From sequence record MW233709: 64,000 nt of DNA. One strand, written 5' to 3'. Shown here piece after piece: positions 1,228 to 50,336 of this stretch. A program made the translations under genes and the position numbers. This stretch comes from Escherichia phage UPEC01. The stretch's first letter is position 1; every line of letters starts with the position of its first letter. The notes under the pieces were generated by a model. That model was not told the origin of the DNA. It made no database searches and was given only the letters and a program-made list of their open reading frames with translations.

Positions 1228-1796
1228 GTCTCTTTGATGATGACGTTCAATTAAACGAACATGAGGTTGCGTGGAAATCACGCGACTTTAACAAAATTCA
1301 GGAATTGTCCGATTCATACAAAGAGAAAGCAGAAAATGAATTGTTCGCGATTCTTAACGACATAACCGTTAGCAAAAAACCACGGAACCTGATTCAATCG
1401 GAAAACTACAATAAATTCTGGCTGGATAACGCATTGAGTCAACATGTTGATTGCATCATGCAGGTGAACGTGATGAACTTAATCGGTTCCGGGTTAACAG
1501 ACCAGCAGCATTATAATTATTTGCTGCATGCAGTTCCGCAAGGTAAGCGTTACGGCAAATGGGCGAAGGCTGAACCGGATGTAGTCAACGTCCAGCTTGT
1601 GCTCAAGCTTTTAATGAAATATTATACAATTAATGCAGATGATGCTTTGATGTATATGGAAACATTGAAAGTCAAAGGTAGTCTTAAAGATGTTTTGAAA
1701 AAGACAAAAGGTCTGGTAACGGATGAATTCTTAAAGACCGTTACCAGTAATGTGAAAGAACAAAAAGAAATTAAAAAACAAATATTGGAATGGTAA
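1218..1796 (+). CDS. 62: clamp loader small subunit gp62
   Basis: 192 aa, overlaps gp44 stop; strong similarity to T4 gp62 (NEHEVAW, AMNLIGSGL, GKRYGKWAK). Confidence 0.9.
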   Translation: MAVSLFDDDVQLNEHEVAWKSRDFNKIQELSDSYKEKAENELFAILNDITVSKKPRNLIQSENYNKFWLDNALSQHVDCIMQVNVMNLIGSGLTDQQHYNYLLHAVPQGKRYGKWAKAEPDVVNVQLVLKLLMKYYTINADDALMYMETLKVKGSLKDVLKKTKGLVTDEFLKTVTSNVKEQKEIKKQILEW

Positions 1797-1797
1797 A

Positions 1798-2166
1798 ATG
1801 ATTGAAATTACATTAAAGCAACCTGAAGACTTCCTGAAAGTTAAAGAAACTCTGACCCGTATGGGCATCGCAAATAATAAAGACCGTGTGCTGTACCAGA
1901 GCTGCCACATCCTCCAAAAGCAAGGTCGTTATTATATTGTTCACTTCAAAGAAATGCTGCGCATGGATGGTCGTCAGGTTGATATTGACGGTGAAGACTA
2001 TCAGCGCCGTGATTCCATCGCCCAACTGCTTGAAGACTGGGGCTTAATCGCTATCAAAGAAGAAGAGCATAATGAATTGTTCGCAGTAACAAATAACTTC
2101 CGTGTTATTTCATTCAAACAAAAAGACGACTGGAAGCTCGTAGCCAAATATACAATTGGTAATTGA
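1798..2166 (+). CDS. regA: translational repressor RegA
   Basis: 122 aa, near-identical to T4 RegA (MIEITLK.PEDFLKVKETLTRMGIANNKD). Confidence 0.95.
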   Translation: MIEITLKQPEDFLKVKETLTRMGIANNKDRVLYQSCHILQKQGRYYIVHFKEMLRMDGRQVDIDGEDYQRRDSIAQLLEDWGLIAIKEEEHNELFAVTNNFRVISFKQKDDWKLVAKYTIGN

Positions 2167-2167
2167 T

Positions 2168-2383
2168 ATGAAGCATGAAATTGAAACATGTGAACGCCTT
2201 AAAGAAGTATATGGACTTTCCCCAACTCAAACTATTTTTGACCTTTCCGAAGAACTTCAAATAGAATTTCAAAAGGAACTCAATAAATTATTGCATCCTG
2301 GACAGAGAGTCTTCCAGGCTATGGTTAGAACTAAAGATGAAAATGGTAATCCGACCATCGAACGTCGTACAATAGAAATTTAA
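2168..2383 (+). CDS. hypothetical protein (72 aa)
   Basis: ORF starting ATG 2168 overlapping regA stop (TGATATG); followed by terminator hairpin. Confidence 0.45.
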   Translation: MKHEIETCERLKEVYGLSPTQTIFDLSEELQIEFQKELNKLLHPGQRVFQAMVRTKDENGNPTIERRTIEI

Positions 2384-2387
2384 AGCA

Positions 2388-2408
2388 AAGGGACTTCGGT
2401 CCCTTTTG
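2388..2408 (+). terminator. intrinsic terminator hairpin (GGGAC-TTCG-GTCCC + T-run)
   Basis: agggacttcggtccctttt directly after ORF 2168-2383. Confidence 0.6.
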
Positions 2409-2438
2409 TAGTATAATAGCGTCAAGTCATAAAACAAA

Positions 2439-2468
2439 AGTCAATCACTCGACTATAAAGGAAATCAA
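2439..2468 (+). promoter_or_regulatory. candidate gp43 translational operator (small hairpin AGTC-aatcactc-GACT upstream of SD)
   Basis: Resembles the T4 gene 43 autogenous translational operator layout (hairpin then UAUAAAGGAAA then AUG). Confidence 0.4.
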
Positions 2469-5183
2469 ATGCAAGAATTTTATTTAACTATCGAACAAAT
2501 CGGTGACAACCTACTCGAACGATATATTGACAAGAATGGTCATGAACGTGTTCGTGAAATCCCTTATGCTCCATGCTTGTTTATGCACGCCCGCGAAGAC
2601 CAAGCTGCAAAGTATACAGACATCTATAATAAAGGTTGTGTGAAAAAAGAATTCGATTCCATGCGTGATGCATCCCAGTGGATGAAGCGAATGAATGACA
2701 TGGGTCTCGAAGCTATGGGTATGGACGACTTTAAACTCGCATACTTGTCCGACCGTTACCCACACGAAATCAAATATGATTCAAGTAAAATCCGTGTTGC
2801 TAACTTCGATATCGAGGTGACATCTCCTGATGGGTTCCCTGAACCGTCTGAAGCACGTCACCCTATTGACGCCCTGACGCACTATGATTCGGTAGACGAT
2901 AAATTCTATGTCTTTGACCTTTTGGGCTCACCATACGCCACTGTGGAGCAATGGTCTATTGATATTGCTGCTAAGCTGCAGGAAGACGGTGGTGATGAAG
3001 TCCCGGAAGAAATCCTGGAAAAAATTGTTTATATGGCTTTCGATTCAGAAGAAGAAATGCTCCAGCAGTATTTGGTATTCTGGAACGAGAAAACTCCGGT
3101 TATGTTAACTGGTTGGAACATCGAGAAGTTTGATATTCCATATATCTACAACCGCCTTAAAAATGTATTTGGTGAAGCTACAGCAAAACGTCTGAGCCCA
3201 CATCGTCGTACAAAAGTTAAGGTCATTAACAACGGCTTTGGCGAAGAACAAGAAATCATTCAGATTCTGGGTATCTCTGTTCTGGATTATCTGGACCTGT
3301 ATAAAAAGTTCAGCTTCACAAACCAACCGTCTTATTCGTTGGATTATGTTGCGGAATCTGAACTGGGTGTTGGTAAACTCCCGTATGATGGCCCGATTTC
3401 TAAACTGCGCGAATCAAATCACCAGCGGTATATTTCTTATAACATCATCGACGTTTATCGTGTTGTGCAGATTGACCGTAAGCGACAGTTTATTAACCTG
3501 AGTCAGTCAATGGGTTATTACGCAAAAATGCAGATTCAGTCTGTATTCAGCCCAATCAAAACTTGGGATGCGATTATCTTTAACAGCTTGAAGACTCAAA
3601 ACAAAGTTATTCCGGAAACCAAATCGCATGTTCGCCAATCGTTCCCTGGTGCATTTGTTAAGGAACCTATTCCGAACGCATACAAATATGTAATGAGCTG
3701 TGACTTAACATCTCTGTATCCGAGCATCATCCGACAGATTAACATCAGTCCAGAAACGATTGCCGGGTCATTTGCGCCAGCCCAGATGTATGAATACATC
3801 GCAGGAACTGCTGACCGTCCATCTGATACATTTAGTTGTGCTCCAAATGGTATGATGTATTTTAAAGATGTTGCGGGTATTATTCCGACAGAAGTCACCA
3901 AGGTGTTTAATCAGCGTAAAGAGCACAAAGGCTATATGCTTGCGGCTCAACGTAATGGTGAACTGATTAAGGAAGCTCTGCGTAATCCAGGAACTGGCAC
4001 AACCGAACCAGAAGTTGATTATCGTCATGACTTTGATGACAATATGAAAACGACCCTGCATGGTCTGAATCAAACAGTCCTAAATGGTATGCTGTACAAA
4101 GCGCAGATGGAAGAAGTTGCAGGCATGACCGCACAGATTAACCGTAAACTGCTTATCAACAGTTGTTATGGCGCTCTGGGTAATATCTGGTTCCGTTACT
4201 TTGACCTGCGAAATGCAACCGCGATTACATCTTTCGGACAACTTGCACTGCAGTGGATTGAGCGTAAAGTTAACGAATACTTCGATAGTGTTTGTGGTAC
4301 AAGCGGTGAAACTTATGTGTTCTATGGCGATACTGACTCCATTTATATCCAGTGCGATAACCTGATTAAAAAGGTTGGTGGCGAATCTAAATTCCGCGAT
4401 ACAAACCACCTGGTTGACTTCATGGACAAGTTTGCGAAAGACCGTCTGGAACCGGCAATCGATAAAGCTTTCCGTGAGCTGGCTGAATACATGAACAACA
4501 AACAGCACCTTATGTTTATGGACCGTGAGGCGATTGCATGTCCTCCGCTGGGTTCGAAGGGTGTGGGTGGATTCTGGACGGCGAAGAAGCGTTATGCGTT
4601 GAACGTGTACGATATGGAAGGCACACGTTATGCTGTTCCAAAATTGAAAATCATGGGTCTGGAAACTCAAAAGTCGAGTACTCCAAAGGCATGTCAGAAA
4701 GCTCTGAAAGAATGCATCCGCCGTATGCTGCAAGAAGGTGAAGAATCTCTGCAGACATACTTCAAGGAATTCAATAAGGAATTTAATGAGCTTAACTACA
4801 TGACCATCGCAGGGGTATCATCGGTTAACAACATCCAGAAATATAATGAAGGTGGTTTCCCTGGATTTAAGTGCCCGGCTCATATCAAAGGTGTGCTTGC
4901 ATATATGCGTGCAACTAAAGGTCTGAAGACTGTTCCGCAAATCATGGAAGGGGAAAAGGTGTATGTACTTCCTCTTAAAGTCGGCAACCCATTTGGTGAA
5001 ACCGTGATTGCATGGCCATCAGGGATTGAACTCCCGATTGAAATTCGTGACCAAGTCTTGCAGTGGATGGACTACAACACACTGTTCCAGAAGACTTTTG
5101 TCAAACCGTTAACAGGTTTCTCTGAAGCTGCAAAGGTTGATTACGAAAAGAAAGCAACTCTTTTTGATATGTTTGACTTTTAA
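2469..5183 (+). CDS. 43: DNA polymerase gp43 (family B)
   Basis: 904 aa; exonuclease and polymerase motifs incl. YGDTDS, KKRYA, SLYPSII. Confidence 0.97.
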   Translation: MQEFYLTIEQIGDNLLERYIDKNGHERVREIPYAPCLFMHAREDQAAKYTDIYNKGCVKKEFDSMRDASQWMKRMNDMGLEAMGMDDFKLAYLSDRYPHEIKYDSSKIRVANFDIEVTSPDGFPEPSEARHPIDALTHYDSVDDKFYVFDLLGSPYATVEQWSIDIAAKLQEDGGDEVPEEILEKIVYMAFDSEEEMLQQYLVFWNEKTPVMLTGWNIEKFDIPYIYNRLKNVFGEATAKRLSPHRRTKVKVINNGFGEEQEIIQILGISVLDYLDLYKKFSFTNQPSYSLDYVAESELGVGKLPYDGPISKLRESNHQRYISYNIIDVYRVVQIDRKRQFINLSQSMGYYAKMQIQSVFSPIKTWDAIIFNSLKTQNKVIPETKSHVRQSFPGAFVKEPIPNAYKYVMSCDLTSLYPSIIRQINISPETIAGSFAPAQMYEYIAGTADRPSDTFSCAPNGMMYFKDVAGIIPTEVTKVFNQRKEHKGYMLAAQRNGELIKEALRNPGTGTTEPEVDYRHDFDDNMKTTLHGLNQTVLNGMLYKAQMEEVAGMTAQINRKLLINSCYGALGNIWFRYFDLRNATAITSFGQLALQWIERKVNEYFDSVCGTSGETYVFYGDTDSIYIQCDNLIKKVGGESKFRDTNHLVDFMDKFAKDRLEPAIDKAFRELAEYMNNKQHLMFMDREAIACPPLGSKGVGGFWTAKKRYALNVYDMEGTRYAVPKLKIMGLETQKSSTPKACQKALKECIRRMLQEGEESLQTYFKEFNKEFNELNYMTIAGVSSVNNIQKYNEGGFPGFKCPAHIKGVLAYMRATKGLKTVPQIMEGEKVYVLPLKVGNPFGETVIAWPSGIELPIEIRDQVLQWMDYNTLFQKTFVKPLTGFSEAAKVDYEKKATLFDMFDF

Positions 5184-5252: not shown

Positions 5253-5495
5253 ATGGAAACATTAATTGCGGGTACTGTTGTTCTTGGTGCAGGTTCTTTC
5301 TTCCTGGCTGCACTGGCATATTTTCTGCCGTGGATTATCGCGCTACTGCGTGGAACCAAAAGTAATTGCGGAATCTTCTTTGTTAACCTCCTGTTAGGTT
5401 GGACAATGGTCGGATGGTTTATTGCATTTATCTGGGCACTCGTTGCTGAACGTAAATCAAACGCACAAGTAATTATCATCAAGGAATCAAAATGA
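5253..5495 (+). CDS. imm: superinfection-immunity-like small membrane protein (Imm-like)
   Basis: 80 aa, two hydrophobic segments, motif LLLGWTMVGWFIAFIWAL typical of superinfection immunity family; T4 imm position next to gene 43. Confidence 0.55.
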   Translation: METLIAGTVVLGAGSFFLAALAYFLPWIIALLRGTKSNCGIFFVNLLLGWTMVGWFIAFIWALVAERKSNAQVIIIKESK

Positions 5496-5554
5496 AGATA
5501 ATTACAATTATTGTATTGATTGCATTTTTAGTATGTCAATCTATTGGGCAATAA
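5492..5554 (+). CDS. tiny hydrophobic ORF (20 aa)
   Basis: ATGA overlap with previous stop; MKIITIIVLIAFLVCQSIGQ. Confidence 0.25.
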   Translation: MKIITIIVLIAFLVCQSIGQ

Positions 5555-5642
5555 TGACTCCACATATGATTCCAACTTTAATTTTGGGTTGGGTATTTTT
5601 GGGGCTCCAAGCCCGCTATGAATGTTTTAATTAGGAAGCAAA

Positions 5643-6146
5643 ATGAAAAAGTTAGCTATCGCAGCTGTTATGCTGCTATCTGGTTGTGCTTACCAGGGTG
5701 ATGTTGTTAATGCCAACGAGATTGGTAAAGCGCGAATTGCTGCAGACCGTCAGGTGCATAATGGTTCCTTTGATTTCAAAGGTGGTACTGGACTTATCTA
5801 CAAACGCGACAACAATCAATGTGGAAACAACTGCGCGAAATATGCTCAACAAGAAATTGAGTACAAACGCGAGCAAGCTGCGAAGCATGACGAAATCATT
5901 GCCAAGCTGGAAGCAGAAACCAAGCGACAAAATGACCTGGACACTGTTAACCAGATTTCACAGGTCTGCATGTCATACATCAATATGCAGATAAACATCA
6001 TGCGCGCAGAAGCTTATCAGGCAGCGGAGATGGGTTCTCCAAAAGCTAATGAGTACCGCGATATGTATCAGCGTTCTGCTCAAAACCGTCTGAGCTATAT
6101 TAATAAATGTGTAGCTAAAGAGAAAGCACGCCAAGGTATTAACTGA
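5643..6146 (+). CDS. putative lipoprotein
   Basis: Signal peptide with lipobox LLSGC (MKKLAIAAVMLLSGCAYQ), 167 aa. Confidence 0.6.
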   Translation: MKKLAIAAVMLLSGCAYQGDVVNANEIGKARIAADRQVHNGSFDFKGGTGLIYKRDNNQCGNNCAKYAQQEIEYKREQAAKHDEIIAKLEAETKRQNDLDTVNQISQVCMSYINMQINIMRAEAYQAAEMGSPKANEYRDMYQRSAQNRLSYINKCVAKEKARQGIN

Positions 6147-6253
6147 TGTTATTATTACTTCTGATTGTTGTAACAGTAATTGGTTTGCTGCTATTAGAAA
6201 AGCGTAATAAGCATTTGGCTGAAGAAAACTGGAAATGTGGTAACGTTTACTGA
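6146..6253 (+). CDS. small membrane protein (35 aa)
   Basis: ATGA overlap with lipoprotein stop; MLLLLLIVVTVIGLLLLEKRNK... Confidence 0.3.
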   Translation: MLLLLLIVVTVIGLLLLEKRNKHLAEENWKCGNVY

Positions 6254-6337
6254 GTTAATTGCTCTAAAAATACAGTGATATAATTATCCTATCTTAAACC
6301 TGTGAGAAAAATATAATGGTGCCTATGGAAAAAATGA

Positions 6338-7516
6338 ATGTCTATTGCAGATTTGAAATCCCGTTTGATTAAAGCTTCTACATCCAAAATGACTGCGACT
6401 CTTACCAAGTCCAAGTTCTTTAATGATAAAGATGTAGTTCGTACAAAAATCCCGATGCTGAACATTGCAATCAGCGGTGCACTAGATGGTGGTATGCAGT
6501 CAGGTTTGACTATTTTTGCTGGTCCGTCAAAACACTTTAAATCCAATATGGGTTTAACGATGGTCTCTGCATATATGAACAAATACCCCGATGCAATCTG
6601 TTTGTTCTATGATTCAGAATTTGGTATCACAGAAGCATATCTTCGTGCAATGAAAGTTGACCCGGAACGTGTTATCCATACACCAATCCAGTCGGTTGAA
6701 CAATTGAAAGTTGATATGGTTAACCAGCTTGAAGCAATTGAGCGTGGTGAAAAAGTCATTATCTTTATTGACTCAATCGGTAACATGGCGTCGAAAAAAG
6801 AAACAGAAGATGCGATGAACGAAAAAGTTGTTGGTGATATGACTCGCGCTAAATCCCTGAAATCTCTGTTCCGTATTGTTACCCCATATTTTAGTATCAA
6901 GGATATTCCTTGTGTCGCGGTTAACCATACAATTGAGACGATTGAGATGTACAGCAAAACCGTTATGACCGGTGGCACAGGTGTTATGTATTCCGCAGAC
7001 ACCGTATTCATTATCGGCAAACGCCAGATTAAAGAAACTGGTAAAGAACTTGAAGGCTTCCAATTTGTTCTGAACGCCGAAAAATCTCGTATGGTCAAAG
7101 AGAAAAGTAAATTCTTCATTGATGTAAAATTCGATGGGGGTATTGACCCGTATTCTGGCCTGCTTGATATGGCAATGGAAATCGGATTTGTGGTGAAACC
7201 AAAAGTTGGTTGGTATAACCGTGAATATCTTGATGTTGAGACCGGCGAAATGGTCCGCGAAGAAAAATCATGGCGCGCAAAAGATACTAACTGCACCGAA
7301 TTCTGGGGTCCGCTGTTCAAGCACGAACCTTTCCGTGATGCAATTAAACGCCATTACCAACTGGGTGCAATCGATAGCAATGCTGTTGTTGATGCTGAAG
7401 TTGATGCGCTTATTGCCTCCAAGGTTGAAAAATACTCTGCTCCTGAAGGTAAGACAAAACCGTCCGCTGCAGATATCGAAAACGATTTAGATATGATGGA
7501 AGACCTTGATGAATGA
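6338..7516 (+). CDS. uvsX: recombinase UvsX (RecA-like)
   Basis: 392 aa, very high similarity to T4 UvsX (FAGPSKHFKSN Walker A, KDTNCTEFWGPLFKH). Confidence 0.97.
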   Translation: MSIADLKSRLIKASTSKMTATLTKSKFFNDKDVVRTKIPMLNIAISGALDGGMQSGLTIFAGPSKHFKSNMGLTMVSAYMNKYPDAICLFYDSEFGITEAYLRAMKVDPERVIHTPIQSVEQLKVDMVNQLEAIERGEKVIIFIDSIGNMASKKETEDAMNEKVVGDMTRAKSLKSLFRIVTPYFSIKDIPCVAVNHTIETIEMYSKTVMTGGTGVMYSADTVFIIGKRQIKETGKELEGFQFVLNAEKSRMVKEKSKFFIDVKFDGGIDPYSGLLDMAMEIGFVVKPKVGWYNREYLDVETGEMVREEKSWRAKDTNCTEFWGPLFKHEPFRDAIKRHYQLGAIDSNAVVDAEVDALIASKVEKYSAPEGKTKPSAADIENDLDMMEDLDE

Positions 7517-35059: not shown

Positions 35060-36439
35060 ATGTCTGACGTTTTAAGTATGATGTCCAAACAGTTCAGTGA
35101 TTCCATGGGGACCCTTAACCCCCGCAGTCTAAAAGACATTATTGATGTGGAAGCATTGTCATATGCTATCTACACTGTGGAAGGTCGCGCCATCCCAAAC
35201 ATGATTGATGGTTTTAAACCAGTTCACAGATTTGTTATGGCGAGAGCATTAGACCTGGCGCGTGGTGATAAGAATAAATTCCATAAGGTTGCCTCCATTG
35301 CAGGTGGCGTAGCTGATTATGGTTATCACCATGGCGAAGCATCAGCGGAAGAAGCAACTTCTGGTCTGGTCGCAACATATAAAAATGAATACCCCATGTT
35401 TGATGGGCAAGGCAACTTTGGTTCCAGAATGGTGCCAGAAGCATCATCAGCTCGTTATGTATTCGCACGGGTTTCAAAGAACTTTTATAACTTGTTTAAG
35501 GATACAGAATATGCTCCGGTCCATCCTGATGAAGAACATAAGCCTCCTGCTTTTTATCTTCCTGTTATTCCTACTGTATTACTTAACGCCACTTCTGGGA
35601 TTGCTGTTGGCTTCGCTACTGATATTCTTCCTCATTCGTTCCAGGACGTCAAGGAAGCTGTTAAAGCTATCGTGGAAGGTCGTGAGCCGGTTGCTCCGAA
35701 AGTAAAATATCCAGAATTCCGCGGTAAAGTGGTTGAGCTGGAAGAGCCTGGTAAGTATGAACTTCATGGCACATACAAAATGACCTCCAGGACCCAAATG
35801 GAAATTACTGAAATCCCGGTCCAATGGAACCTGGAAAAGTATACAAGTAAAATCCTGGACCCGCTGGAAGAGAAAGGTTTTATCACCTGGAAAGATAACT
35901 GCGGCGAGCATGGTTTTGGGTTTAAGATTAAATTCCGCAAAGAATACAAGTTGGATGGTACCGAAGAAGAAAATCATGAAAAAATCATGAAAGACTTTGG
36001 TCTGATTGAGAAGCTCTCCCAGAACTTAACAGTGCTTAATCACAAAGGCAAGCTGGCTGAATACACCAACACGCTTGACCTGATTCGCGATTTCGTTGAT
36101 GTCCGTAAGACTTATGTTCAAGTGCGAATTGACAGTAAGATTAAAGAAACTGAAGCAGCATTTAAACTGGCCCGGGCAAAAGTCTTCTTTATTAAAGAAG
36201 TGATTGACGGTAAGGTTGTTATCCAGGGGAAACCTCGTAAGAAGTTGATTGAGGAACTCCAGGCGAGTGAAATATATGGCGATTATGCAGAGAAGTTAGT
36301 GGCGATGAACATCTACCATATGACCTCTGATGAAGCCAAGAAGCTTGCAGACGAAGCAAAGGCTAAGAAAGCTGAGCATGAGTACTGGAAGACAACTGAT
36401 GTTAAAACTGAATACCTTAATGATTTGGAGGCTCTATGA
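35060..36439 (+). CDS. 52: DNA topoisomerase II medium subunit gp52 (GyrA-like)
   Basis: 459 aa; KPVHRFVMARALDL breakage-reunion region with catalytic Tyr context. Confidence 0.93.
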   Translation: MSDVLSMMSKQFSDSMGTLNPRSLKDIIDVEALSYAIYTVEGRAIPNMIDGFKPVHRFVMARALDLARGDKNKFHKVASIAGGVADYGYHHGEASAEEATSGLVATYKNEYPMFDGQGNFGSRMVPEASSARYVFARVSKNFYNLFKDTEYAPVHPDEEHKPPAFYLPVIPTVLLNATSGIAVGFATDILPHSFQDVKEAVKAIVEGREPVAPKVKYPEFRGKVVELEEPGKYELHGTYKMTSRTQMEITEIPVQWNLEKYTSKILDPLEEKGFITWKDNCGEHGFGFKIKFRKEYKLDGTEEENHEKIMKDFGLIEKLSQNLTVLNHKGKLAEYTNTLDLIRDFVDVRKTYVQVRIDSKIKETEAAFKLARAKVFFIKEVIDGKVVIQGKPRKKLIEELQASEIYGDYAEKLVAMNIYHMTSDEAKKLADEAKAKKAEHEYWKTTDVKTEYLNDLEAL

Positions 36440-36599: not shown

Positions 36600-36648
36600 G
36601 ATTCCATACTGAGTTACACAATGAATCACAAAAACTTTGGAGAATAAA

Positions 36649-36864
36649 ATGTTTACTGCACAACAGAATGAAGGTCAAGAATACATCAACGCTAAATTCA
36701 AATCTAACAAAGAAGCTTGCTATTATTACTTTGACATGTTCAAACTGGCAAACTCTAAAGAAGAACGTAAACAAGCAATTGATGTGATTGTTTCTACTTC
36801 CCATATGAAACGTACTGTGGTACAATCATATGCATCAAATTATATGAAATCTATTAAGGGATAA
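36649..36864 (+). CDS. hypothetical protein (71 aa)
   Basis: ATG 36649 after GGAGAATAAAATG leader. Confidence 0.45.
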   Translation: MFTAQQNEGQEYINAKFKSNKEACYYYFDMFKLANSKEERKQAIDVIVSTSHMKRTVVQSYASNYMKSIKG

Positions 36865-36866
36865 TT

Positions 36867-37475
36867 GTGAACAAGTTAAATTATATCGTTAAATGCTCCC
36901 AGAATGCGCTGCATGAGACTGATGTCAATGCTTTGGTGTTTGTATACAAAAACAACTTCGTGAGTCCAGAGGTTGTTTTAGACCAGCAGAACACATCAAT
37001 TGATAGCGTACAGACATTGTTGAATAACAACTATGTTGAAGCTTCTGGTGATGGTTTGATGATTACAGAAAAGGGTGTTGACCTTATTCTGGATGCAGCT
37101 GAACTTTGGGCGAATGAAAATAATCCTGACCTTCTGGAAGTGAAGAAGACAAGAACAAAACGCGGTGTGACTGATGAAATGGAAGCGACTGCAGAATATA
37201 TCAAAGAGCAATTGTTGTCTATTGGTATTGACTTTAAGAGCATTTCAGAAGACCGCAGCAATCTGATTGTGAAGTTCAAGCGTATCAAGACATTAAAACA
37301 GATTGATGTTCGTCGTGATGGTCAGATTCGCGTACATGCGTATAATACTGAACAAAAGATAGTAAAACAGTTTACAGACGTGGGATTTAGCGTTAAAGTA
37401 GGTGGATTGAATACCTACATTGACAACGTTATGTCAACTGAAAACATTCAACATGTTATTAACATCTTAAAGTGA
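36867..37475 (+). CDS. motA: middle transcription activator MotA
   Basis: 202 aa (GTG start); SGDGLMITEKG and KQFTDVGFSVKV...ENIQHVINIL align with T4 MotA domains. Confidence 0.75.
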   Translation: MNKLNYIVKCSQNALHETDVNALVFVYKNNFVSPEVVLDQQNTSIDSVQTLLNNNYVEASGDGLMITEKGVDLILDAAELWANENNPDLLEVKKTRTKRGVTDEMEATAEYIKEQLLSIGIDFKSISEDRSNLIVKFKRIKTLKQIDVRRDGQIRVHAYNTEQKIVKQFTDVGFSVKVGGLNTYIDNVMSTENIQHVINILK

Positions 37476-37485
37476 GGAAATTGTT

Positions 37486-37662
37486 ATGAACATCTATCTG
37501 ATTAAGTACCTAAAAGATGGTAAAGAACGTGATTACCAAATCCCCGCAAAAAATGAATATGATGCGTGTGTTCGCCTTGGTCAGATTCATGGTGATGACC
37601 GTGAATATCGCAATGATGTTGAAATTGAAATCCAATCTGTAACTTTGAAAGTGAGAGGCTAA
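37486..37662 (+). CDS. hypothetical protein (58 aa)
   Basis: ORF with GAGGAAA RBS. Confidence 0.35.
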   Translation: MNIYLIKYLKDGKERDYQIPAKNEYDACVRLGQIHGDDREYRNDVEIEIQSVTLKVRG

Positions 37663-37664
37663 TC

Positions 37665-37997
37665 ATGAATAAGCTGAATATTGTTAATGAATTGCGCGCT
37701 TGTGTAGAACCTACTCAAGAGGGTTGGGATGTTTGGTATCATGGCGCTTACCTTGGAACTATTGTCAAGGTCAAAGCTGGTCAGTATCTTATCCATCGTC
37801 AGGATGATGCAGTAGCTCCGTTTGGTGCACGCAAGAACTTCATGGCAGCGATTGGTGCCTTTGTTCCAGCAGCATATGAAGTATATAAAGCTGACTATAA
37901 AGAATACCAGGAATCACAACCAGTTATTCGCTCAATTGGTGTTAATAAAGCTCAACAGAAAAGTCTGTGGCAACGTGTTAAAGGTTGGTTCAAATGA
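37665..37997 (+). CDS. hypothetical protein (110 aa)
   Basis: ORF. Confidence 0.45.
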   Translation: MNKLNIVNELRACVEPTQEGWDVWYHGAYLGTIVKVKAGQYLIHRQDDAVAPFGARKNFMAAIGAFVPAAYEVYKADYKEYQESQPVIRSIGVNKAQQKSLWQRVKGWFK

Positions 37998-38332
37998 TTC
38001 CTATGGAACTAAACTGGGATGGCGAAGGCCATTCCCTTAAATTGATTGAAGAGCAACGTAACGCTTGGGATGAGCGCTGTGCCTTGGTGAATGGTATTAA
38101 GGTAATTTATAACCTTCATCTCCAGATTGATAATGTTCCTCTTGAGTTTGGTATGCAGTTATCACGTTTTCTTGAGATTATTACTATAGAAAAAGTATCC
38201 ATAACTTCGTATGGTGTATGCCAAACAGTTGATATCAAATTGACTTCTTCTGACAAAGGCGAGTTGATTGGTATTGGTGATAAAATTCATGAATTCGTGA
38301 AATATAATGGTTATAAGGTGATTATCAAATGA
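37994..38332 (+). CDS. hypothetical protein (112 aa)
   Basis: ATGA-coupled start. Confidence 0.45.
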
Positions 38333-38817
38333 ATCCATTAAAAGGTAAAGCATTATCCTTTAAAGAACGGATGACCTTGTTAGATAAAGCTCTTTCTCGT
38401 GAGACTCCTGAAAGTCTCGCTGCTAAATTACAGGCATATGGTGATTACACTGAATATACCGAAGAAGACGTTCTGAAAGAAGTCCCAGAAATCTGTTGGC
38501 AGATTGCACATTGGAATAACAATGAAAAATATCAGCGACGGATTGTATGTGCAGCTAACCGCTTTAAGCTAAAAGATGGTGGGACTCTGGTTATTCCTGG
38601 AGCCAGACATTATTCAAAAGATATGGCAGAAGTGCTTGACCAGGTAAGTGATAAACTTGTGTCAGACCATGTTTGTGGTGATAATCAAGGATTTATTGAC
38701 CAATACAGCAATTACTGGACCCGCGAAGAAGCAATGATTATTGCGACTTATGCAAATCAGGTGCGCATTGAACGTGGCGGTAGTGAGAAAGAACTTTATT
38801 CAGAGGACCTTTACTAA
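38329..38817 (+). CDS. hypothetical protein (162 aa)
   Basis: ATGA-coupled ORF. Confidence 0.5.
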
Positions 38818-39095
38818 TGAATCTTAAGCAACTCCAGATTGATGCAATCGAAAACCATATTAATCATATCAAACGTCTGAACACCATGATGGAAGACAAT
38901 TGGGGAACTTATGTCAACCAACCCGGTTGGGATGCTTTAGACCATGAATATATAAAGGATATTAGTGATAACACATATAGAGTTAGAGAAGGCCTGAAAC
39001 CCTTCCTGCGTGATATGTATATTGCAACAAATAAAGCAATTATTAACTATCTTGAATACCAATTAAGGGAATTGCATGAACAATCTTGTAGCTAA
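38817..39095 (+). CDS. hypothetical protein (92 aa; arn-position candidate)
   Basis: Same length as T4 Arn and located between motA and asiA; only mildly acidic, unverified. Confidence 0.4.
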   Translation: MNLKQLQIDAIENHINHIKRLNTMMEDNWGTYVNQPGWDALDHEYIKDISDNTYRVREGLKPFLRDMYIATNKAIINYLEYQLRELHEQSCS

Positions 39096-39184
39096 ACACG
39101 ATTTCAATAAGGCGTCTGTCCATAAGGACAAGAAGAAAACAGAAATGCAGTCCAAACGTAAGCAGAAGCACAAGGGGAATCACT

Positions 39185-39349
39185 ATGAGTCATAATTTAG
39201 AGAACGCCATCACTGGTCAGCGTATACGCGAGCAAGAGTGCTTTGATGAATTCCTTGGGGCTGATTTTAAGTTCCAGGAACCAATTGAAGATATGTATCA
39301 GACATATGCTGCACAGATGGAAAATCATGTGTACAACCCAGAGGAATAA
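39185..39349 (+). CDS. hypothetical protein (54 aa)
   Basis: small ORF. Confidence 0.3.
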   Translation: MSHNLENAITGQRIREQECFDEFLGADFKFQEPIEDMYQTYAAQMENHVYNPEE

Positions 39350-39407
39350 TAGTACAATATCCTTACTGAATAATTGAATGTCTTATTGAATACTTGAGTA
39401 AATTAAA

Positions 39408-39683
39408 ATGACTAAATTTGAAATCGTTTCTGAAATTGTTACTGTAACTTCAATTTTGATTAAAACCGACCGGGAAGATATTACGATGAAGCGTGATGTG
39501 TTTATCGCGTTTTTGAATGAGTTGGGATTGAGGAATGAGAATGGGAATGAGTTAAACAACGTATCGTTTAACAAGTTGTTTAAAAGTTTATCTGAAGATG
39601 AAATTGAACAAATCATTGAACAATTTAACGAAGGATTCGAAGATATACATCGTTATCTTATGATGTATACCTCCGGATTCTAA
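39408..39683 (+). CDS. asiA: anti-sigma70 factor AsiA
   Basis: 91 aa; VTSILIKTDREDI...FIAFLNELG...FNEGFEDIHRYLMMYT aligns with T4 AsiA. Confidence 0.85.
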   Translation: MTKFEIVSEIVTVTSILIKTDREDITMKRDVFIAFLNELGLRNENGNELNNVSFNKLFKSLSEDEIEQIIEQFNEGFEDIHRYLMMYTSGF

Positions 39684-40333
39684 CGTGTACGTCCGAGCGT
39701 ACGACCTGCTTGTCCACACATAGCAGAAAGCCTATCAAAACCAAGGTTAGGTTTTTGCTTATACCAGTACAGTGAGACTGTACCTGCATAAACGTTCTCT
39801 AGATTAAAGAATGGGCAGCTGAACATATATTCGAAGCTGCTTTTTTTCTTTGTTGGTAAGAATACAGATTCCGTACCGGATTCAAAATAATTACCATTAA
39901 CCCCTGCCAAATATTCCGCTGAAGTCTTATCTATTGGAAACCCACCCAAATTTTTCTCGTCGACTGATTCAGGTAATATCCCCTCGTACCCCACCATATC
40001 CACGAAGTAGTTAAGGTTAGTTGGTCTAAAAGAATATATCGCTGTAAAGTCAGCTCCGCTTGATGAGTGAACTATCTGGATTTGCTCGATAGCTGCAATT
40101 TTAAATCTGTTATCCTGGTCTTGCCTTATCATTTCTGTGTACGAGGCATATGAAGCATCCCTATACGCATCTAAAATTGCATCACCTTTATACCAGATTA
40201 CCGCCATTAAAAATAATAGAACAATAACTAGTACCCGGGAAAAGACAACTTTCCCGGTCGCATTATCTTTAAAAATTCTATCAAGAAGTCCAAAAAGTAG
40301 GTCGGGGATTGAGATTCCTACTTTTGGTTCCAT
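39680..40333 (-). CDS. t: holin T
   Basis: 217 aa; LLFGLLDRIFKDNATGKV, single N-terminal TM, C-terminal ...CGQAGRTLGR as T4 holin. Confidence 0.9.
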   Translation of the reverse strand: MEPKVGISIPDLLFGLLDRIFKDNATGKVVFSRVLVIVLLFLMAVIWYKGDAILDAYRDASYASYTEMIRQDQDNRFKIAAIEQIQIVHSSSGADFTAIYSFRPTNLNYFVDMVGYEGILPESVDEKNLGGFPIDKTSAEYLAGVNGNYFESGTESVFLPTKKKSSFEYMFSCPFFNLENVYAGTVSLYWYKQKPNLGFDRLSAMCGQAGRTLGRTR

Positions 40334-40351: not shown

Positions 40352-40359
40352 TATTTATA
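40352..40359 (-). promoter_or_regulatory. late promoter TATAAATA (minus strand) for t
   Basis: tatttata on + strand 20 nt upstream of t start. Confidence 0.5.
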
Positions 40360-40370
40360 GCGCAAAAGTA

Positions 40371-41144
40371 TTATAGCCAGGAGCCATAGATAGTGCCTGT
40401 AGCACCCCATGTCGGTGAACTTCCGAATACTGCTCTACCAGGAGCACCACCCCCCGACCTGGATAAGTGATTGCCCCATCCGTCGCCACCAGCGCCACCT
40501 GCATCACCTCCATTACCACCGCCAAATTGACTTGTATTACCACCACCACCTGGGCCGTCATAACTAGCATTACCGCCAGGCCAATTAACGCCACCGCCGC
40601 CGAGACCAAATGGTCGACCGCCTCCCCCACCTGCGGTAGAATTTGCAGGCCAACTATTCTGTAATGATACGGCACCGCCGCCGCCACCACCAGAGGCTAT
40701 CACACCATAATTCCAAATGCGAAGTCGTCCACCAATATCATTTTGGATTACGTCGCCACCATTAGTGCCTGGGCTTCCATTTACGCTACCATTACCACCA
40801 CGGCCCCACATATGAACGCCACCATGAATATTCAAAGTAACATATTCGTTAGGGGTATCACCGTACATAAAGAACAACGGAACATCTTTAGTATATGATA
40901 CTAAGTTGCCTGTGATATTAAACACTATAGGAGCACCGCCGGCTTCAAAACAACGGTCACGGAACCATTGACCATTAAAGTTATGGTCAGCTCCAAGAGT
41001 GTGAATTACTTCAACAGAACGGCCGTTCATATTGCTCATCCAAAACGGAATGCTCATTCTTAATCGTTGGGCCGCTCCACCCATCCAATTTTGTCCTGTA
41101 TTAGCTACTGCAGACCCTCCAACCCACGGTCCTACTACTGCCAT
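40371..41144 (-). CDS. 38: gp38 tail-fibre adhesin, T2-type with glycine-rich motifs
   Basis: 257 aa from MAVVGPW; conserved N-terminus ([22 protein letters not shown]) plus multiple poly-Gly motifs separated by variable segments. Confidence 0.85.
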
Positions 41145-41175
41145 ATAAACCTCCAAGGGGCCGAAGCCCCTCTTA

Positions 41176-44100
41176 TTATTTCAACAATGATTTAACTAAT
41201 TTTTTAAGCTCTTCAATCTCTGATTTAAGTTCTGCAATTTCTGCAGTATGCTCGTTGATTGCAGCTGTATTTAAACCAATTACACCGTTATAGTTCAAAC
41301 GAAGTAAAGCTTCACCATCCAGGTCGCCTTCAACTAATTCTGGTAAAATAGCTTGAACTTCTTGAGCTATCAAACCAGCGTTAGGTTCCCATTTCTGATT
41401 ACCTTCTTCATCTGTTCCACGTTTCTGCATATAAGTGTAACCGTTAATTTTAGAAAGCTTCTCAGAAGCATTTTCAAATTTAACGAGGTTCTTTTTAACA
41501 CGAATATCAGAGCGGACATAAACATCACGGACATACGTTGAATAGCTGTCATTCGCCTGAACTAAATGACCATGAGAAACGATAGCTCTTCCGGTTTCTG
41601 TCCAAAAAGCACCAGTTGAATCCCAAAGTCCAGGATGAGATTGATAGCCTGCGCCCCAGCTTGCAATATGTATACTATTGGCAACCATGTTAATTCGACC
41701 ATCACCACCGTGTGATAAGCCTGTATCGTTGTCACCGATGGCGATACTCGGAGTGCCAAGTCCGTTAACAGTACCAACACCGATTGCAGGAGTTTGAATC
41801 AAAGTAGGGCTATAGAATAGTCCAGACGAATGGAATTCAAAAATACCTACAGGCCCATCGCCGCGCTCGGCATTACCTACTCGAATTATAGCTTGTCCCC
41901 AGGCTTGTGGTGTACGTCTAATACCAAGGTCAACAGAAGTAGTATATCCTTGACCAGTAATTACAGAACGGCCTTTAATAATAGGATAATAACTATCTTC
42001 GCCAACGCTACCAAAATCAAGGAAATAAGGTGCTTCTAAGCCCCATTGGTCGCCCCACGCACCAGATTTACGCGCAACCCAGTGAGCACCGTTCATATGA
42101 ATTCGGTCACGGTTTATATTGAATATACTAGTGCCCTGTGGAGATAGAATAACTTCACCGTTAGGGTTGATATTAATACCGCCTTGAGATTGGAAACTCC
42201 AGAAGGCAAGTCCGTTATCAGCACCGCCATTACCGACATACCAGTTATCAGCACCACCTTTTTTACCCTTAACATAGCCCGCTTCATCTGCTGGATAATC
42301 AATAACAACAGCATCCGAGTTGGTTTTAAGAGTTAAACGTCCGGTCATCGTGTCGCCTTCTTTTGAAACACGAGTAGCTATTGCATCGCGAATATTTGTA
42401 GTGTCTCCTGCTGAAGTGAACGTTTTCCAGATATCAGAGAAGATGTTACCATTTTTAGCAATAGTAGCTTCACCACCACCAACCTGAACATTATCGGGGA
42501 AGTTAACTGTACCATCAGCATTAAATCTTGAGGTATGGGCTTGTGTTCCATCTTCTTTAAGATGATGAATAACGAATGTACCTGAATTAATTTCAGTACC
42601 TAAAGACCAAACAGCTTTACCGTTTAAAAACTTCTGTTTGACAATCGGATAATATTTACTTACAGCGTCATCATCAATTTCTTGGAAAATAGGAGCAGCC
42701 TGGCCGTATTGAATATCATATCCACCTGCGCCTGCGCCGTGTCCACCAAATTTAATAAAACCATTTTCAGCAAAAGTTGTATGGCTCAAATCTAGGTCCG
42801 GAATAACCACCTTACCAGTATCTAAAGCCAAACTAAACGGGCGAAGTGGACCGATGTCCCCGGTTTTACCCTCACCAAAGGCTGTTGGAATAATATGAAG
42901 ACTTCCTTCTGAACGACGGAAAATAGCGGCGTAATCGTCGTTCCAAATTCTAAGAGCATTGACCGCATTACCAGCAATAGTGCCGGAGACGTTAACTTCC
43001 TGACCGACATTTATACTTTCGTTTACGCCCAAAGTTCCATTTAAATGGCTTTGAATAGAACCTGAAGTCAGACGTTGATAATATTGAATCCAGCTAGTGT
43101 CATCAGATATTTCCATTACGTTTTTACGGTCGCCATCAACATTAGCAAAGGTATTACCCCAAACGCTGATAGTCATATTATCAACTGAACTATTTCCTGT
43201 AGTATTTCCTTTGAACAACAGAGTAGATGCATTGTTGCGGCCGTCGATATTAACCGAACCGCCGATAACATTAATATCACCTGGAGTAACTAACAATCCG
43301 CCAGCGGTGTTAACGTTTGTAGTGCCTTTACCACGGAAATAGTGGTGGTAATTACCGCCTTGGTAATAACCCAAAAGAGTTTGACCATCACCGTATGCGT
43401 TATTATCATGGTAAGTAACTACAGTTGCCAGAGCATAGTTTTCAGCCGGAGGAGTAGTCAAATCAGTACCATTTACAGAATAACCCATAACCATTTTTCT
43501 AAGACTAGTAGTTTCCGCCGGACCGGAAAGGAAAGTTTTTGTACCGTTGTTTACCGTAAAAAAATATCCATCTTGATGCCATTTAAATCCGGTGTCATTA
43601 TCACCGAGGGCAATTGAAGCTGTTCCTAATTCAGAATATCCTTTGGGGCCGCCTGGGGTGCCTATAGAAATGGAATGGCCCGCTTTCAATCCACCAGACC
43701 ATGTAAACGACCATAGATAGGCCTCTAACCCGTCGCCAGCGTACCAAGTTATTCCATCATTATCTTTAACTTCATGGAAAATACCAGCTCCTACCGCATT
43801 GCGCATCGAACGAAGATGGTTAATTGCTGTTTCGCTTTCGGTTAAAGGAGTGTTGTCAGCCATTGAATAGATATCATAATCACCATCTTTCTTAGCATTG
43901 GTAATAACTTTATCAGTCATAACTGTCGGCGATGAAATAGATTTCCAAGCATTAACTATAGGAGAGGTCAAAATACCATCACCGGAGAAAGAATAGCTGT
44001 GCTCACCGCCTGCTGCGTAATCTTGTACTCGAATATTAACTACCTGGGTTGTCAAACCGGCATTATTTGGAGAAAAGATAATCCCACGTTCACGGTCATT

Positions 44101-44478
44101 GCCATCAAAGAAACGAAGGTGCGAAGTAGAAGCGCTCTTAGAAATCAGTTCGCCACCTTCAGTCATTATCTGACCTGCTGCAATAATATCACGAGTTACA
44201 CGAGCAATTCCAGTTAAATTAAAATTACCTGTCTGGGTAAATGTGCCATTGATGGTATAATCACCGGTTTGATTATAATTGCCTTTATGAATAACGTTAC
44301 CATCGATATTGCCACCCTTAGCAAAACCAAGGTCAATAATAGCTCCGGTATCATCCTTTGTGAATAACAAGCGGTCTTTCAAGTTAATTGCGAGTTCACC
44401 TTCAGCCAATACAGTTGGGGTTGGGCGGACACCAGCAATTTTACTTCTTTTAAATTGTATTTGTTTTAAAGTAGCCAT
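41176..44478 (-). CDS. 37: long tail fibre distal subunit gp37
   Basis: 1100 aa; N-terminal [14 protein letters not shown]-terminal intramolecular-chaperone-like domain ending in coiled coil. Confidence 0.9.
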
Positions 44479-45170: not shown

Positions 45171-45178
45171 TATTTATA
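45171..45178 (-). promoter_or_regulatory. late promoter TATAAATA (minus strand) for gene 36
   Basis: tatttata on + strand; T4 has a late promoter before gene 36. Confidence 0.55.
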
Positions 45179-50328: not shown

Positions 50329-50336
50329 TATTTATA
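50329..50336 (-). promoter_or_regulatory. late promoter TATAAATA (minus strand) for gene 34
   Basis: tatttata on + strand 32 nt upstream of gene 34 start. Confidence 0.6.

Follow-up and report, generated by a model that had tools for sequence, protein, structure and literature searches.

The tail-fiber locus and gene 38

The analyzed window is a stretch of 64,000 nucleotides from the genome of Escherichia phage UPEC01 (MW233709), a phage of 169.8 kb that comes from sewage in Kampala and has avian pathogenic E. coli as its host (PMC8928767), and that gp23 phylogeny places in Gaprivervirus (PMC9785759). On the minus strand of this window, the long-tail-fiber genes follow the canonical order g34 (1318 aa)-g35-g36-g37 (1100 aa)-g38-t, and gene 38 occupies exactly the interval that an earlier note on this DNA had assigned to it, the ORF map and the sequence adding the strand. 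The features of the locus are as follows.

45171..45178, minus strand: T4-type late-promoter motif TATAAATA, 5' of g36 (pattern search and ORF map)
41176..44478, minus strand: gene 37, distal half-fiber subunit of 1100 aa, with Pfam Peptidase_S74, Gp34_trimer and gp37_trimer; identical to the deposited QQG30944.1
41512..41763, minus strand: tip of gp37, aa 906-989, with homology to the fragment of S16 gp37 that was crystallized with gp38
41179..41511, minus strand: gp37 C-terminal intramolecular chaperone, Peptidase_S74, aa 990-1100 (PF13884, 7.5e-13, aa 990-1049)
41155..41172, minus strand: GGGGC-UUCG-GCCCC tetraloop hairpin in the intercistronic gap, after the g37 stop and ahead of the g38 ribosome-binding site (RNA fold)
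41150..41154, minus strand: Shine-Dalgarno sequence GGAGG, 5 nt 5' of the gene 38 ATG (read directly)
40371..41144, minus strand: gene 38, predicted T2/S16-type long-tail-fiber tip adhesin, an intact ORF of 257 aa with its TAA included
40352-40359, minus strand: TATAAATA motif 5' of gene t (pattern search), kept in relatives
39680..40333, minus strand: gene t (holin), directly downstream of gene 38 (Pfam Phage_holin_T, 5.2e-66)

Gene 38 starts at the ATG at 41144-41142 and stops at the TAA at 40373-40371. The longer ORF from a TTG at 41156, which arises by mechanical extension in the ORF list, was rejected because this codon falls within the hairpin and ribosome-binding site that precede the gene, and because both Gp38_N and the S16 gp38 align from residue 1 of MAVVG. 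The upstream signals are conserved: the GGAGG is kept in RB69, FL31, JS10, MN01, and UGJNEcP4, and the intercistronic hairpin recurs in T4 and six related phages, UGJNEcP4 having a compensatory GGGCC/GGCCC stem. Other ORFs that overlap gene 38, in other frames or on the opposite strand, were taken as by-products of its GGN-rich coding sequence.

With regard to transcription, TATAAATA motifs precede g34, g36, and t, and, by analogy with T4, a late transcript covering g36-g37-g38 likely starts at the motif 5' of g36. The count of these motifs in the 64,000-nt window (8 found for 4.4 expected) is not significant, such that their positions alone are suggestive. A scan for sigma-70 promoters and terminators around gene 38 returned no enrichment over shuffled sequences; the sole terminator match near the gene was the UUCG hairpin read antisense.

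The neighboring gp37 is itself informative about the type of fiber. Its last 195 residues (aa 906-1100) match the S16 gp37 chain 6F45_A (9.8e-46), and the Pfam search found the S74 domain and neither Collar nor Phage_fiber, whereas the T4 gp37 carries Collar and Phage_fiber domains, its own C-terminal needle being the receptor-binding tip, and lacks both S74 and an S16-like tip. Because gp37 thus has S74 and an S16-type tip, unlike its T4 counterpart, gp37 and gp38 both belong to the adhesin-bearing type. General knowledge of S74 domains and of the processing of T2 gp37 leads us to predict that UPEC01 gp37 undergoes auto-cleavage before S990 (between VYVR and SDIRVKK), which would remove about 111 residues.

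Family and predicted fold of gp38

Over aa 45-257, the gene 38 product matches Pfam GP38 (PF05268; E 6.9e-82, 274.9 bits for a cut-off of 25) and, over aa 1-39, Pfam Gp38_N (PF21721; E 3.8e-20, 72 bits for a cut-off of 25). In PHROG, the protein falls in family 2056, "tail fiber protein; host specificity" (1.9e-105), and its only PDB matches are the two crystallized adhesins, namely the PP01 receptor-binding domain 9V85 (2.2e-75) and the S16 chain 6F45_D (1.6e-51), the latter being aligned over gp38 residues 1-257. In NCBIfam, no model was found for either adhesin-type or T4-type gp38. An AlphaFold2 model built on 64 homologs (mean pLDDT 85.3) superposes on 9V85_C with a TM of 0.92 and an rmsd of 1.4 Å at 65% identity, and on 6F45_D with a TMq of 0.87, no other PDB fold being better than E = 4. 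The predicted fold is a β-helix combined with a polyglycine-II sandwich, and the lowest-confidence stretch of the model, the only one with a pLDDT below 50, is aa 164-167 (loop B).

The earlier note had described this protein as a T2-type adhesin, a description borne out by the two Pfam domains, PHROG 2056, the homology to S16 and PP01, and the matching predicted fold. Gene 38 almost certainly encodes a receptor-binding adhesin that sits as a monomer on top of the gp37 trimer, the distal tail fiber of a T-even-like coliphage; by analogy with its relatives, UPEC01 gp38 is predicted to sit at the tip of the fiber in the virion and to bind an outer-membrane receptor. The family is structurally characterized, UPEC01 gp38 being a textbook member of it, and an identical sequence is already public. 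The protein named "gp38" in a Rosemountvirus (PMC12946066) is unrelated to the GP38 adhesin family and was set aside. Along the protein, four parts can be delimited.

41013..41144, minus strand: N-terminal gp37-attachment module, aa 1-44 (Gp38_N over aa 1-39; three short helices, each after a conserved Trp)
40806..41012, minus strand: first part of the central β-helix, aa 45-113, strongly conserved (AlphaFold2 strands, pLDDT about 90)
40437..40805, minus strand: polyglycine-II sandwich region, aa 114-236, 39.8% Gly, in which conservation and entropy alternate and whose model fits the PP01 receptor-binding domain
40374..40436, minus strand: C-terminal strands that rejoin the β-helix, aa 237-257, with a conserved ...AV.GS.P.W...G.IYG.. 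pattern

The conserved N-terminal gp37-attachment domain announced by the earlier note is recovered through the Gp38_N match, through residues W7, W20, and W35, which are invariant across an alignment of 14 adhesin sequences, and through the modeled helices at 8-16, 21-27, and 36-39, its docking being proposed by analogy with S16, in which three equivalent Trp of gp38 fill three pockets of the gp37 trimer that are related by symmetry (PMC6851490). The β-helix domain is named as such in the studies of PP01 and S16 (PMC12892980; PMC6851490), and its first part is 97-100% identical between UPEC01 and RB69, JS10, 005, and UGJNEcP4; the C-terminal strands are modeled at 239-241, 245-248, and 251-253.

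Taken together with the structures of relatives, these features suggest how the fiber tip may be built. The gp37 subunits would trimerize with the aid of their own C-terminal S74 chaperone, which would then be cut off before Ser990, and the first 44 residues of gp38 would insert W7, W20, and W35 into three equivalent pockets of the gp37 tip, as in the S16 structure. The remainder of gp38 would form a short β-helix with two long glycine-rich excursions (aa 114-236), predicted to pack as a three-layer lattice of polyglycine-II helices, and the five distal loops between these helices would, judging from relatives, contact the outer-membrane protein and set the choice of receptor. In T6, g38 amber mutants yield virions of normal appearance that have lost adsorption (PMC3157838).

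The characterized adhesins resemble UPEC01 gp38 to varying degrees. With the S16 gp38 (6F45), from a phage of Salmonella, it shares 48-51% identity, the same three domains, the Trp plug, and the GGGGGRP core motif, and the S16 gp37 has a homologous tip and S74 domain; all five distal loops differ, however, and the first long poly-Gly helix counts 6 Gly in UPEC01 for 8 in S16. The best structural match is the gp38 of PP01, a phage of E. coli O157 (9V85), whose loop C and surroundings (GLGG..WPGGNAS) resemble those of UPEC01, whereas its loops A, B, D, and E differ, including the OmpC-contact residues G208/Y209 and Y230 (PMC12892980). Because these contact residues differ, OmpC binding is not transferable from PP01 to UPEC01. 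The gp38 proteins of the Tequatrovirus phages T2, T6, M1, and Ac3 (receptors OmpF+FadL, Tsx, OmpA) belong to the same family and share its modular plan at 63-67% identity, but the T6/M1 N-terminal module is of the G[IV]PGWIG type where UPEC01 has GPWVG, and their variable loops are unrelated to those of UPEC01.

Glycine motifs, variable segments, and a mosaic locus

Glycine makes up 39.8% of residues 114-236, compared with 11.6-15.9% in the N-terminal 113 residues, and the GC content over codons 114-236 reaches 56%, for 40.6% in the whole window. Given the E-value of 6.9e-82 for Pfam GP38, this glycine-rich pattern is not a product of chance. Four glycine motifs had been singled out by the earlier note, two of which are given here by their length.

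40674-40691, minus strand: GGGGGG, aa 152-157
40590-40631, minus strand: second motif, 14 residues, aa 172-185
40536-40556, minus strand: GPGGGGN, aa 197-203
40479-40523, minus strand: fourth motif, 15 residues, aa 208-222

All four are present in the protein, but parts of the third and fourth (aa 201-210 and 219-222) fall in segments that vary within the family and are glycine-rich merely in the UPEC01 allele. The region holds two more conserved motifs rich in glycine, GRGGNG (aa 114-119) and SGGGAPGR (aa 230-237). That variable segments separate the glycine motifs, as the earlier note proposed, holds for the family: per-column conservation and entropy in the alignment of 64 homologs, a property that is not visible from one sequence, delimit five high-entropy segments between conserved glycine motifs, which we assigned to loops A-E by alignment to the published loop definitions of PP01 (PMC12892980).

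40764..40787, minus strand: variable segment 1, SVNGSPGT, aa 120-127, PP01 loop A (entropy; sites S120T, S124N)
40632..40670, minus strand: variable segment 2, aa 159-171, PP01 loop B (entropy; sites P166A, A167P, S169A)
40551..40598, minus strand: variable segment 3, aa 183-198, which includes the PP01 loop C equivalent (entropy)
40515..40544, minus strand: variable segment 4, aa 201-210, PP01 loop D (entropy; sites G201A, N203Y/H, T204A/I, S205N/G)
40446..40490, minus strand: variable segment 5, aa 219-233, PP01 loop E (entropy; sites D221N/A, N225K, H226N)

The third of these segments is nearly invariant inside the RB69/JS10 adhesin subtype, and the polymorphic residue A218 (R or W in relatives) lies directly upstream of the fifth. 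UPEC01 gp38 is set apart from RB69, JS10, MN04, and others by substitutions grouped at 120/124, 166/167/169, 197-205, 217/218, and 221-226. These sites lie in or beside loops A, B, D, and E as defined on PP01, at the positions by which that phage touches OmpC (PMC12892980). In PP01, residues of loop D cross-link to OmpC, loops D and E contact OmpC, and specificity is governed by loop E (PMC12892980).

From a comparative perspective, within the phage collection searched, the 20 kb flanking gene 38 share about 92-94% identity with Gaprivervirus and Dhakavirus genomes, and the best match of gene 38 itself in that collection is vB_EcoM_005 (92% in nucleotides, 96% in amino acids). UPEC01 gp38 has the same length and architecture as the RB69/JS10 subtype, which includes vB_EcoM_005, UGJNEcP4, and JS10/MN04 (Dhakavirus), RB69/RB51/FL31 (Mosigvirus), and Bp7. 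Over the whole protein, identity amounts to 96% with 005, 93% with JS10/MN04, 92% with UGJNEcP4, and 91-92% with RB69/FL31; over the receptor-binding part, it is about 91-93% with RB69/FL31.

Within this subtype, the locus is mosaic. The receptor-binding domain of UGJNEcP4 (aa 45-257) differs from that of UPEC01 at 3 positions, whereas its N-terminal module is T2/T6-like, with 20 differences in 44 residues, and its gp37 tip is different as well; conversely, RB69, FL31, JS10, and MN01 have the same type of N-terminal module and the same gp37 tip as UPEC01. The type of the N-terminal module thus co-varies with the type of the gp37 tip, and this module has been exchanged independently of the rest of the protein; its residues G10, S31, and N40 in UPEC01 are absent from six compared sequences. 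The gp37 is likewise a mosaic, its separate blocks being closest to separate phages. The modularity of gp38 adhesins is known from earlier work, and the presence of one receptor-binding domain on two attachment modules, each with its own gp37 tip, is an instance of the exchange of modules reported by Trojet et al. (PMC3157838).

At the level of the loops, UPEC01 has PANST in loop B, GGGNT in loop D, and A218, when RB69, FL31, and Bp7 have APNAT, GAGYT, and R218, and JS10 and MN04 have PANST, GAGYT, and W218. The UPEC01 combination is common only to vB_EcoM_005 and UGJNEcP4.

Receptor, host range, and the name of gene 38

Published work on relatives (PMC3157838; PMC12892980; PMC12032242; PMC6851490) suggests that the variable segments of gp38 would set receptor specificity, and gp38 phylogeny generally predicts the receptor (PMC12032242). 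The alignment to characterized gp38 proteins that the earlier note had recommended for this purpose places UPEC01 in the RB69/JS10 subtype, but no single receptor can be assigned from it because the reports for RB69, FL31, and Bp7 disagree. RB69, RB51, and SV76 require OmpF, FhuA, and a full LPS core (PMC3157838); FL31 drops by no more than 1 log on the ompF and tolC deletions and is placed by Lutz et al. among the OmpF users (PMC12032242); and the use of LamB and OmpC is attributed to Bp7 (Chen 2020, cited in PMC10987938). UPEC01 gp38 differs from all three at loop positions, and its glycine-motif/variable region, 92-93% identical to those of RB69 and FL31, carries loop substitutions within a subtype whose phenotypes conflict. 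In the literature, no receptor or adsorption report was found for UPEC01 (including its genome announcement, PMC8928767), vB_EcoM_005, or UGJNEcP4, and a search on Dhakavirus and Gaprivervirus receptors returned nothing usable. The OmpA/OmpC/OmpF-type list of the earlier note is generic for the family, none of its receptors being assignable to UPEC01 gp38 in particular. Its presentation of gene 38 as the primary host-range determinant is a standard statement for the family (PMC3157838), but an over-simplified one, because the short tail fibers and the LPS core also matter (PMC8594841).

Judged by similarity to RB69 and FL31, the receptor of UPEC01 gp38 is most likely a general porin. Among the porins, OmpF is marginally favored, a tentative proposal that we regard as slightly less apt to be right than wrong, OmpC or LamB being possible instead. 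Somewhat unlikely, by comparison, is an adhesin that would use OmpC and/or LamB rather than OmpF, as in the Dhakavirus Bp7. Such a preference would be in line with the gp38 of Bp7, which is of the same subtype and shares the motifs of the RB69 receptor-binding domain up to the point where a frameshift interrupts the deposited sequence, and with the LamB and OmpC use attributed to that phage in the secondary citation given above. It would also be in line with the next most similar distinct subtype, PP01/PSD2001 (65-72% identity, with a shared stretch of 19 residues), which binds OmpC (PMC12892980), and with FL31, whose receptor-binding domain is of the RB69 type and on which the ompF deletion has hardly any effect (PMC12032242). 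However, OmpF is reported as needed by RB69, RB51, and SV76 (PMC3157838) and FL31 is grouped with OmpF users (PMC12032242), while UPEC01 gp38 departs from Bp7 in loops A, B, and D and at position 218.

A target other than a porin, be it LPS or O-antigen sugars, or else Tsx, OmpA, FadL, or FhuA, appears very improbable. RB69 does depend on FhuA and a full LPS core as well, an S16-like phage is reported, in the title of PMC10175313, to recognize LPS via its long tail fibers, and UPEC01 was isolated on field strains of avian pathogenic E. coli that carry O-antigens (PMC8928767). Yet LPS may influence RB69 indirectly or by way of the short tail fibers (PMC3157838; PMC8594841), the receptor-binding domain is just 63-67% identical overall to the Tsx-type (T6) and OmpA-type (M1) adhesins, with unrelated variable loops, and the general agreement between gp38 phylogeny and receptor also speaks against such a target.

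Whatever the receptor, the name under which gp38 was deposited points to another function altogether. The record QQG30943.1 (genome MW233709), 100% identical to the protein studied here, bears the product name "distal long tail fiber assembly catalyst", as do many gp38 homologs, and the T4-type assembly chaperone that this name implies, which would aid the folding of gp37 and be absent from the virion, is effectively refuted by sequence and fold and retains next to no likelihood: its sole support is annotation transfer, to QQG30943.1 and several close homologs, with the Gaprivervirus paper likewise terming gp38 a chaperone (PMC9785759) and gene 38 lying between g37 and t just as it does in T4, whereas the T4 gp38 (NC_000866), which has this gene number and slot alone in common with UPEC01 gp38, shows no detectable similarity to it (BLASTP E = 0.92), lacks the GP38 Pfam domain, belongs to PHROG 105, "tail fiber assembly", with PHROG hits disjoint from those of UPEC01 gp38, which belongs to PHROG 2056, and serves a gp37 partner of different architecture, devoid of the S74 intramolecular chaperone that UPEC01 gp37 has of its own, and whereas UPEC01 gp38 aligns at full length with the S16 adhesin crystallized on the gp37 tip and the T6 g38 amber virions look normal while failing to adsorb. 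The statement of the earlier note that gp38 is not the T4-type chaperone was thereby upheld by the very alignment that it had named as a possible refutation.

The name "distal long tail fiber assembly catalyst" is a transferred, T4-derived misnomer that is functionally wrong, and reading gp38 as a receptor-binding adhesin corrects a misnaming propagated in GenBank, where many homologs that bear this name are likewise receptor-binding adhesins. UPEC01 being a candidate therapeutic phage against avian colibacillosis, the loop codons of gene 38 are also marked here for engineering, or for sequencing to follow changes in host range. The practical value is small, and the locus illustrates a known modular exchange rather than opening a new question.

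With regard to the loops themselves, it is conceivable, albeit unlikely, that the combination of PANST, GGGNT, and Ala218 gives UPEC01 a receptor preference unlike those of RB69, FL31, and Bp7, through a switch among OmpF, OmpC, and LamB or through the use of two porins. If this were true, the RB69/JS10 subtype would amount to a natural series of adhesins redirected from one receptor to another by a handful of changes in the loops.

Names and errors in deposited records

The product of g38 (window 40371-41144, minus strand), the tail-fibre tip adhesin gp38, is identical to the UPEC01 protein QQG30943.1, deposited under the product name "distal long tail fiber assembly catalyst", which many close homologues also bear, including those of JS10, IME281, vB_EcoM_005, ECP52, and RB69 (AY303349). 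This name describes the function of T4 gp38 and has been wrongly carried over to an unrelated adhesin. The deposited gp38 of Bp7 changes frame after about residue 220, within the G-rich region, and in vB_EcoM_005 both gp37 and the holin gene are broken into fragments (1746-4234 and 5317-6517 of its own locus); these anomalies are probably sequencing or assembly errors in the records.

Signals around g38 and the region beyond t

The 31-nt gap between the stop of g37, the distal half-fibre gene, and the ribosome-binding site of g38 is occupied by a tetraloop hairpin, and T4-type late-promoter motifs lie closely upstream of three genes of this strand, among them the holin gene t:

41155-41172, minus strand: hairpin GAGGGGC-UUCG-GCCCCUU
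40352-40359, minus strand: TATAAATA, closely upstream of t
45171-45178, minus strand: TATAAATA, closely upstream of g36
50329-50336, minus strand: TATAAATA, closely upstream of g34
36637-39683, plus strand: run of small ORFs on the strand opposite to t, downstream of that gene
35060-36439: homologue of topoisomerase gene 52, up to which this run extends

C(UUCG)G hairpins are known in T4 intercistronic regions, and the UPEC01 hairpin resembles them. It is kept in RB69, FL31, JS10 (with a UUAG loop), MN01, vB_EcoM_005, and also T4; in UGJNEcP4 the stem is compensatory (GGGCC/GGCCC). Read on the plus strand, the same element scores as terminator-like, with a T-run after it. The TATAAATA before t is likewise kept in relatives; across the window, the 8 occurrences of the motif do not significantly exceed the 4.4 expected. 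The small-ORF run probably corresponds to the asiA-arn-motA region annotated in related loci (RB69, JS10).

Mosaicism and C-terminal domain of gp37

By nearest relative, gp37 (window 41176-44478, minus strand) is a block mosaic; its C-terminal domain is given in the last line:

Residues 1-450: vB_EcoM_005 and UGJNEcP4
Residues 501-700: UGJNEcP4, RB69, and FL31 (82-96%)
Residues 701-950: JS10 (82-94%)
Residues 951-1100, tip and S74 domain: RB69, FL31, JS10, and MN01 (84-98%)
Window 41179-41511, minus strand: C-terminal Peptidase_S74 intramolecular chaperone domain

Over the tip and S74 domain, by contrast, UGJNEcP4 is just 32-72% identical to UPEC01. With this C-terminal domain and its conserved SDIRVKK motif, beginning at S990, gp37 is predicted to lose its final 111 residues through auto-cleavage. 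T4 gp37 is without a Peptidase_S74 domain.

The attachment module of gp38

Taken alone, the N-terminal attachment module of gp38 (aa 1-58, window 40971-41144) matches a separate family, PHROG 1121, "tail fiber adhesin" (9.6e-21), and many Klebsiella phage adhesins align with gp38 over aa 1-44 only, at about 64% identity. The module that docks gp38 onto gp37 is thus present also on adhesins with unrelated receptor-binding domains.
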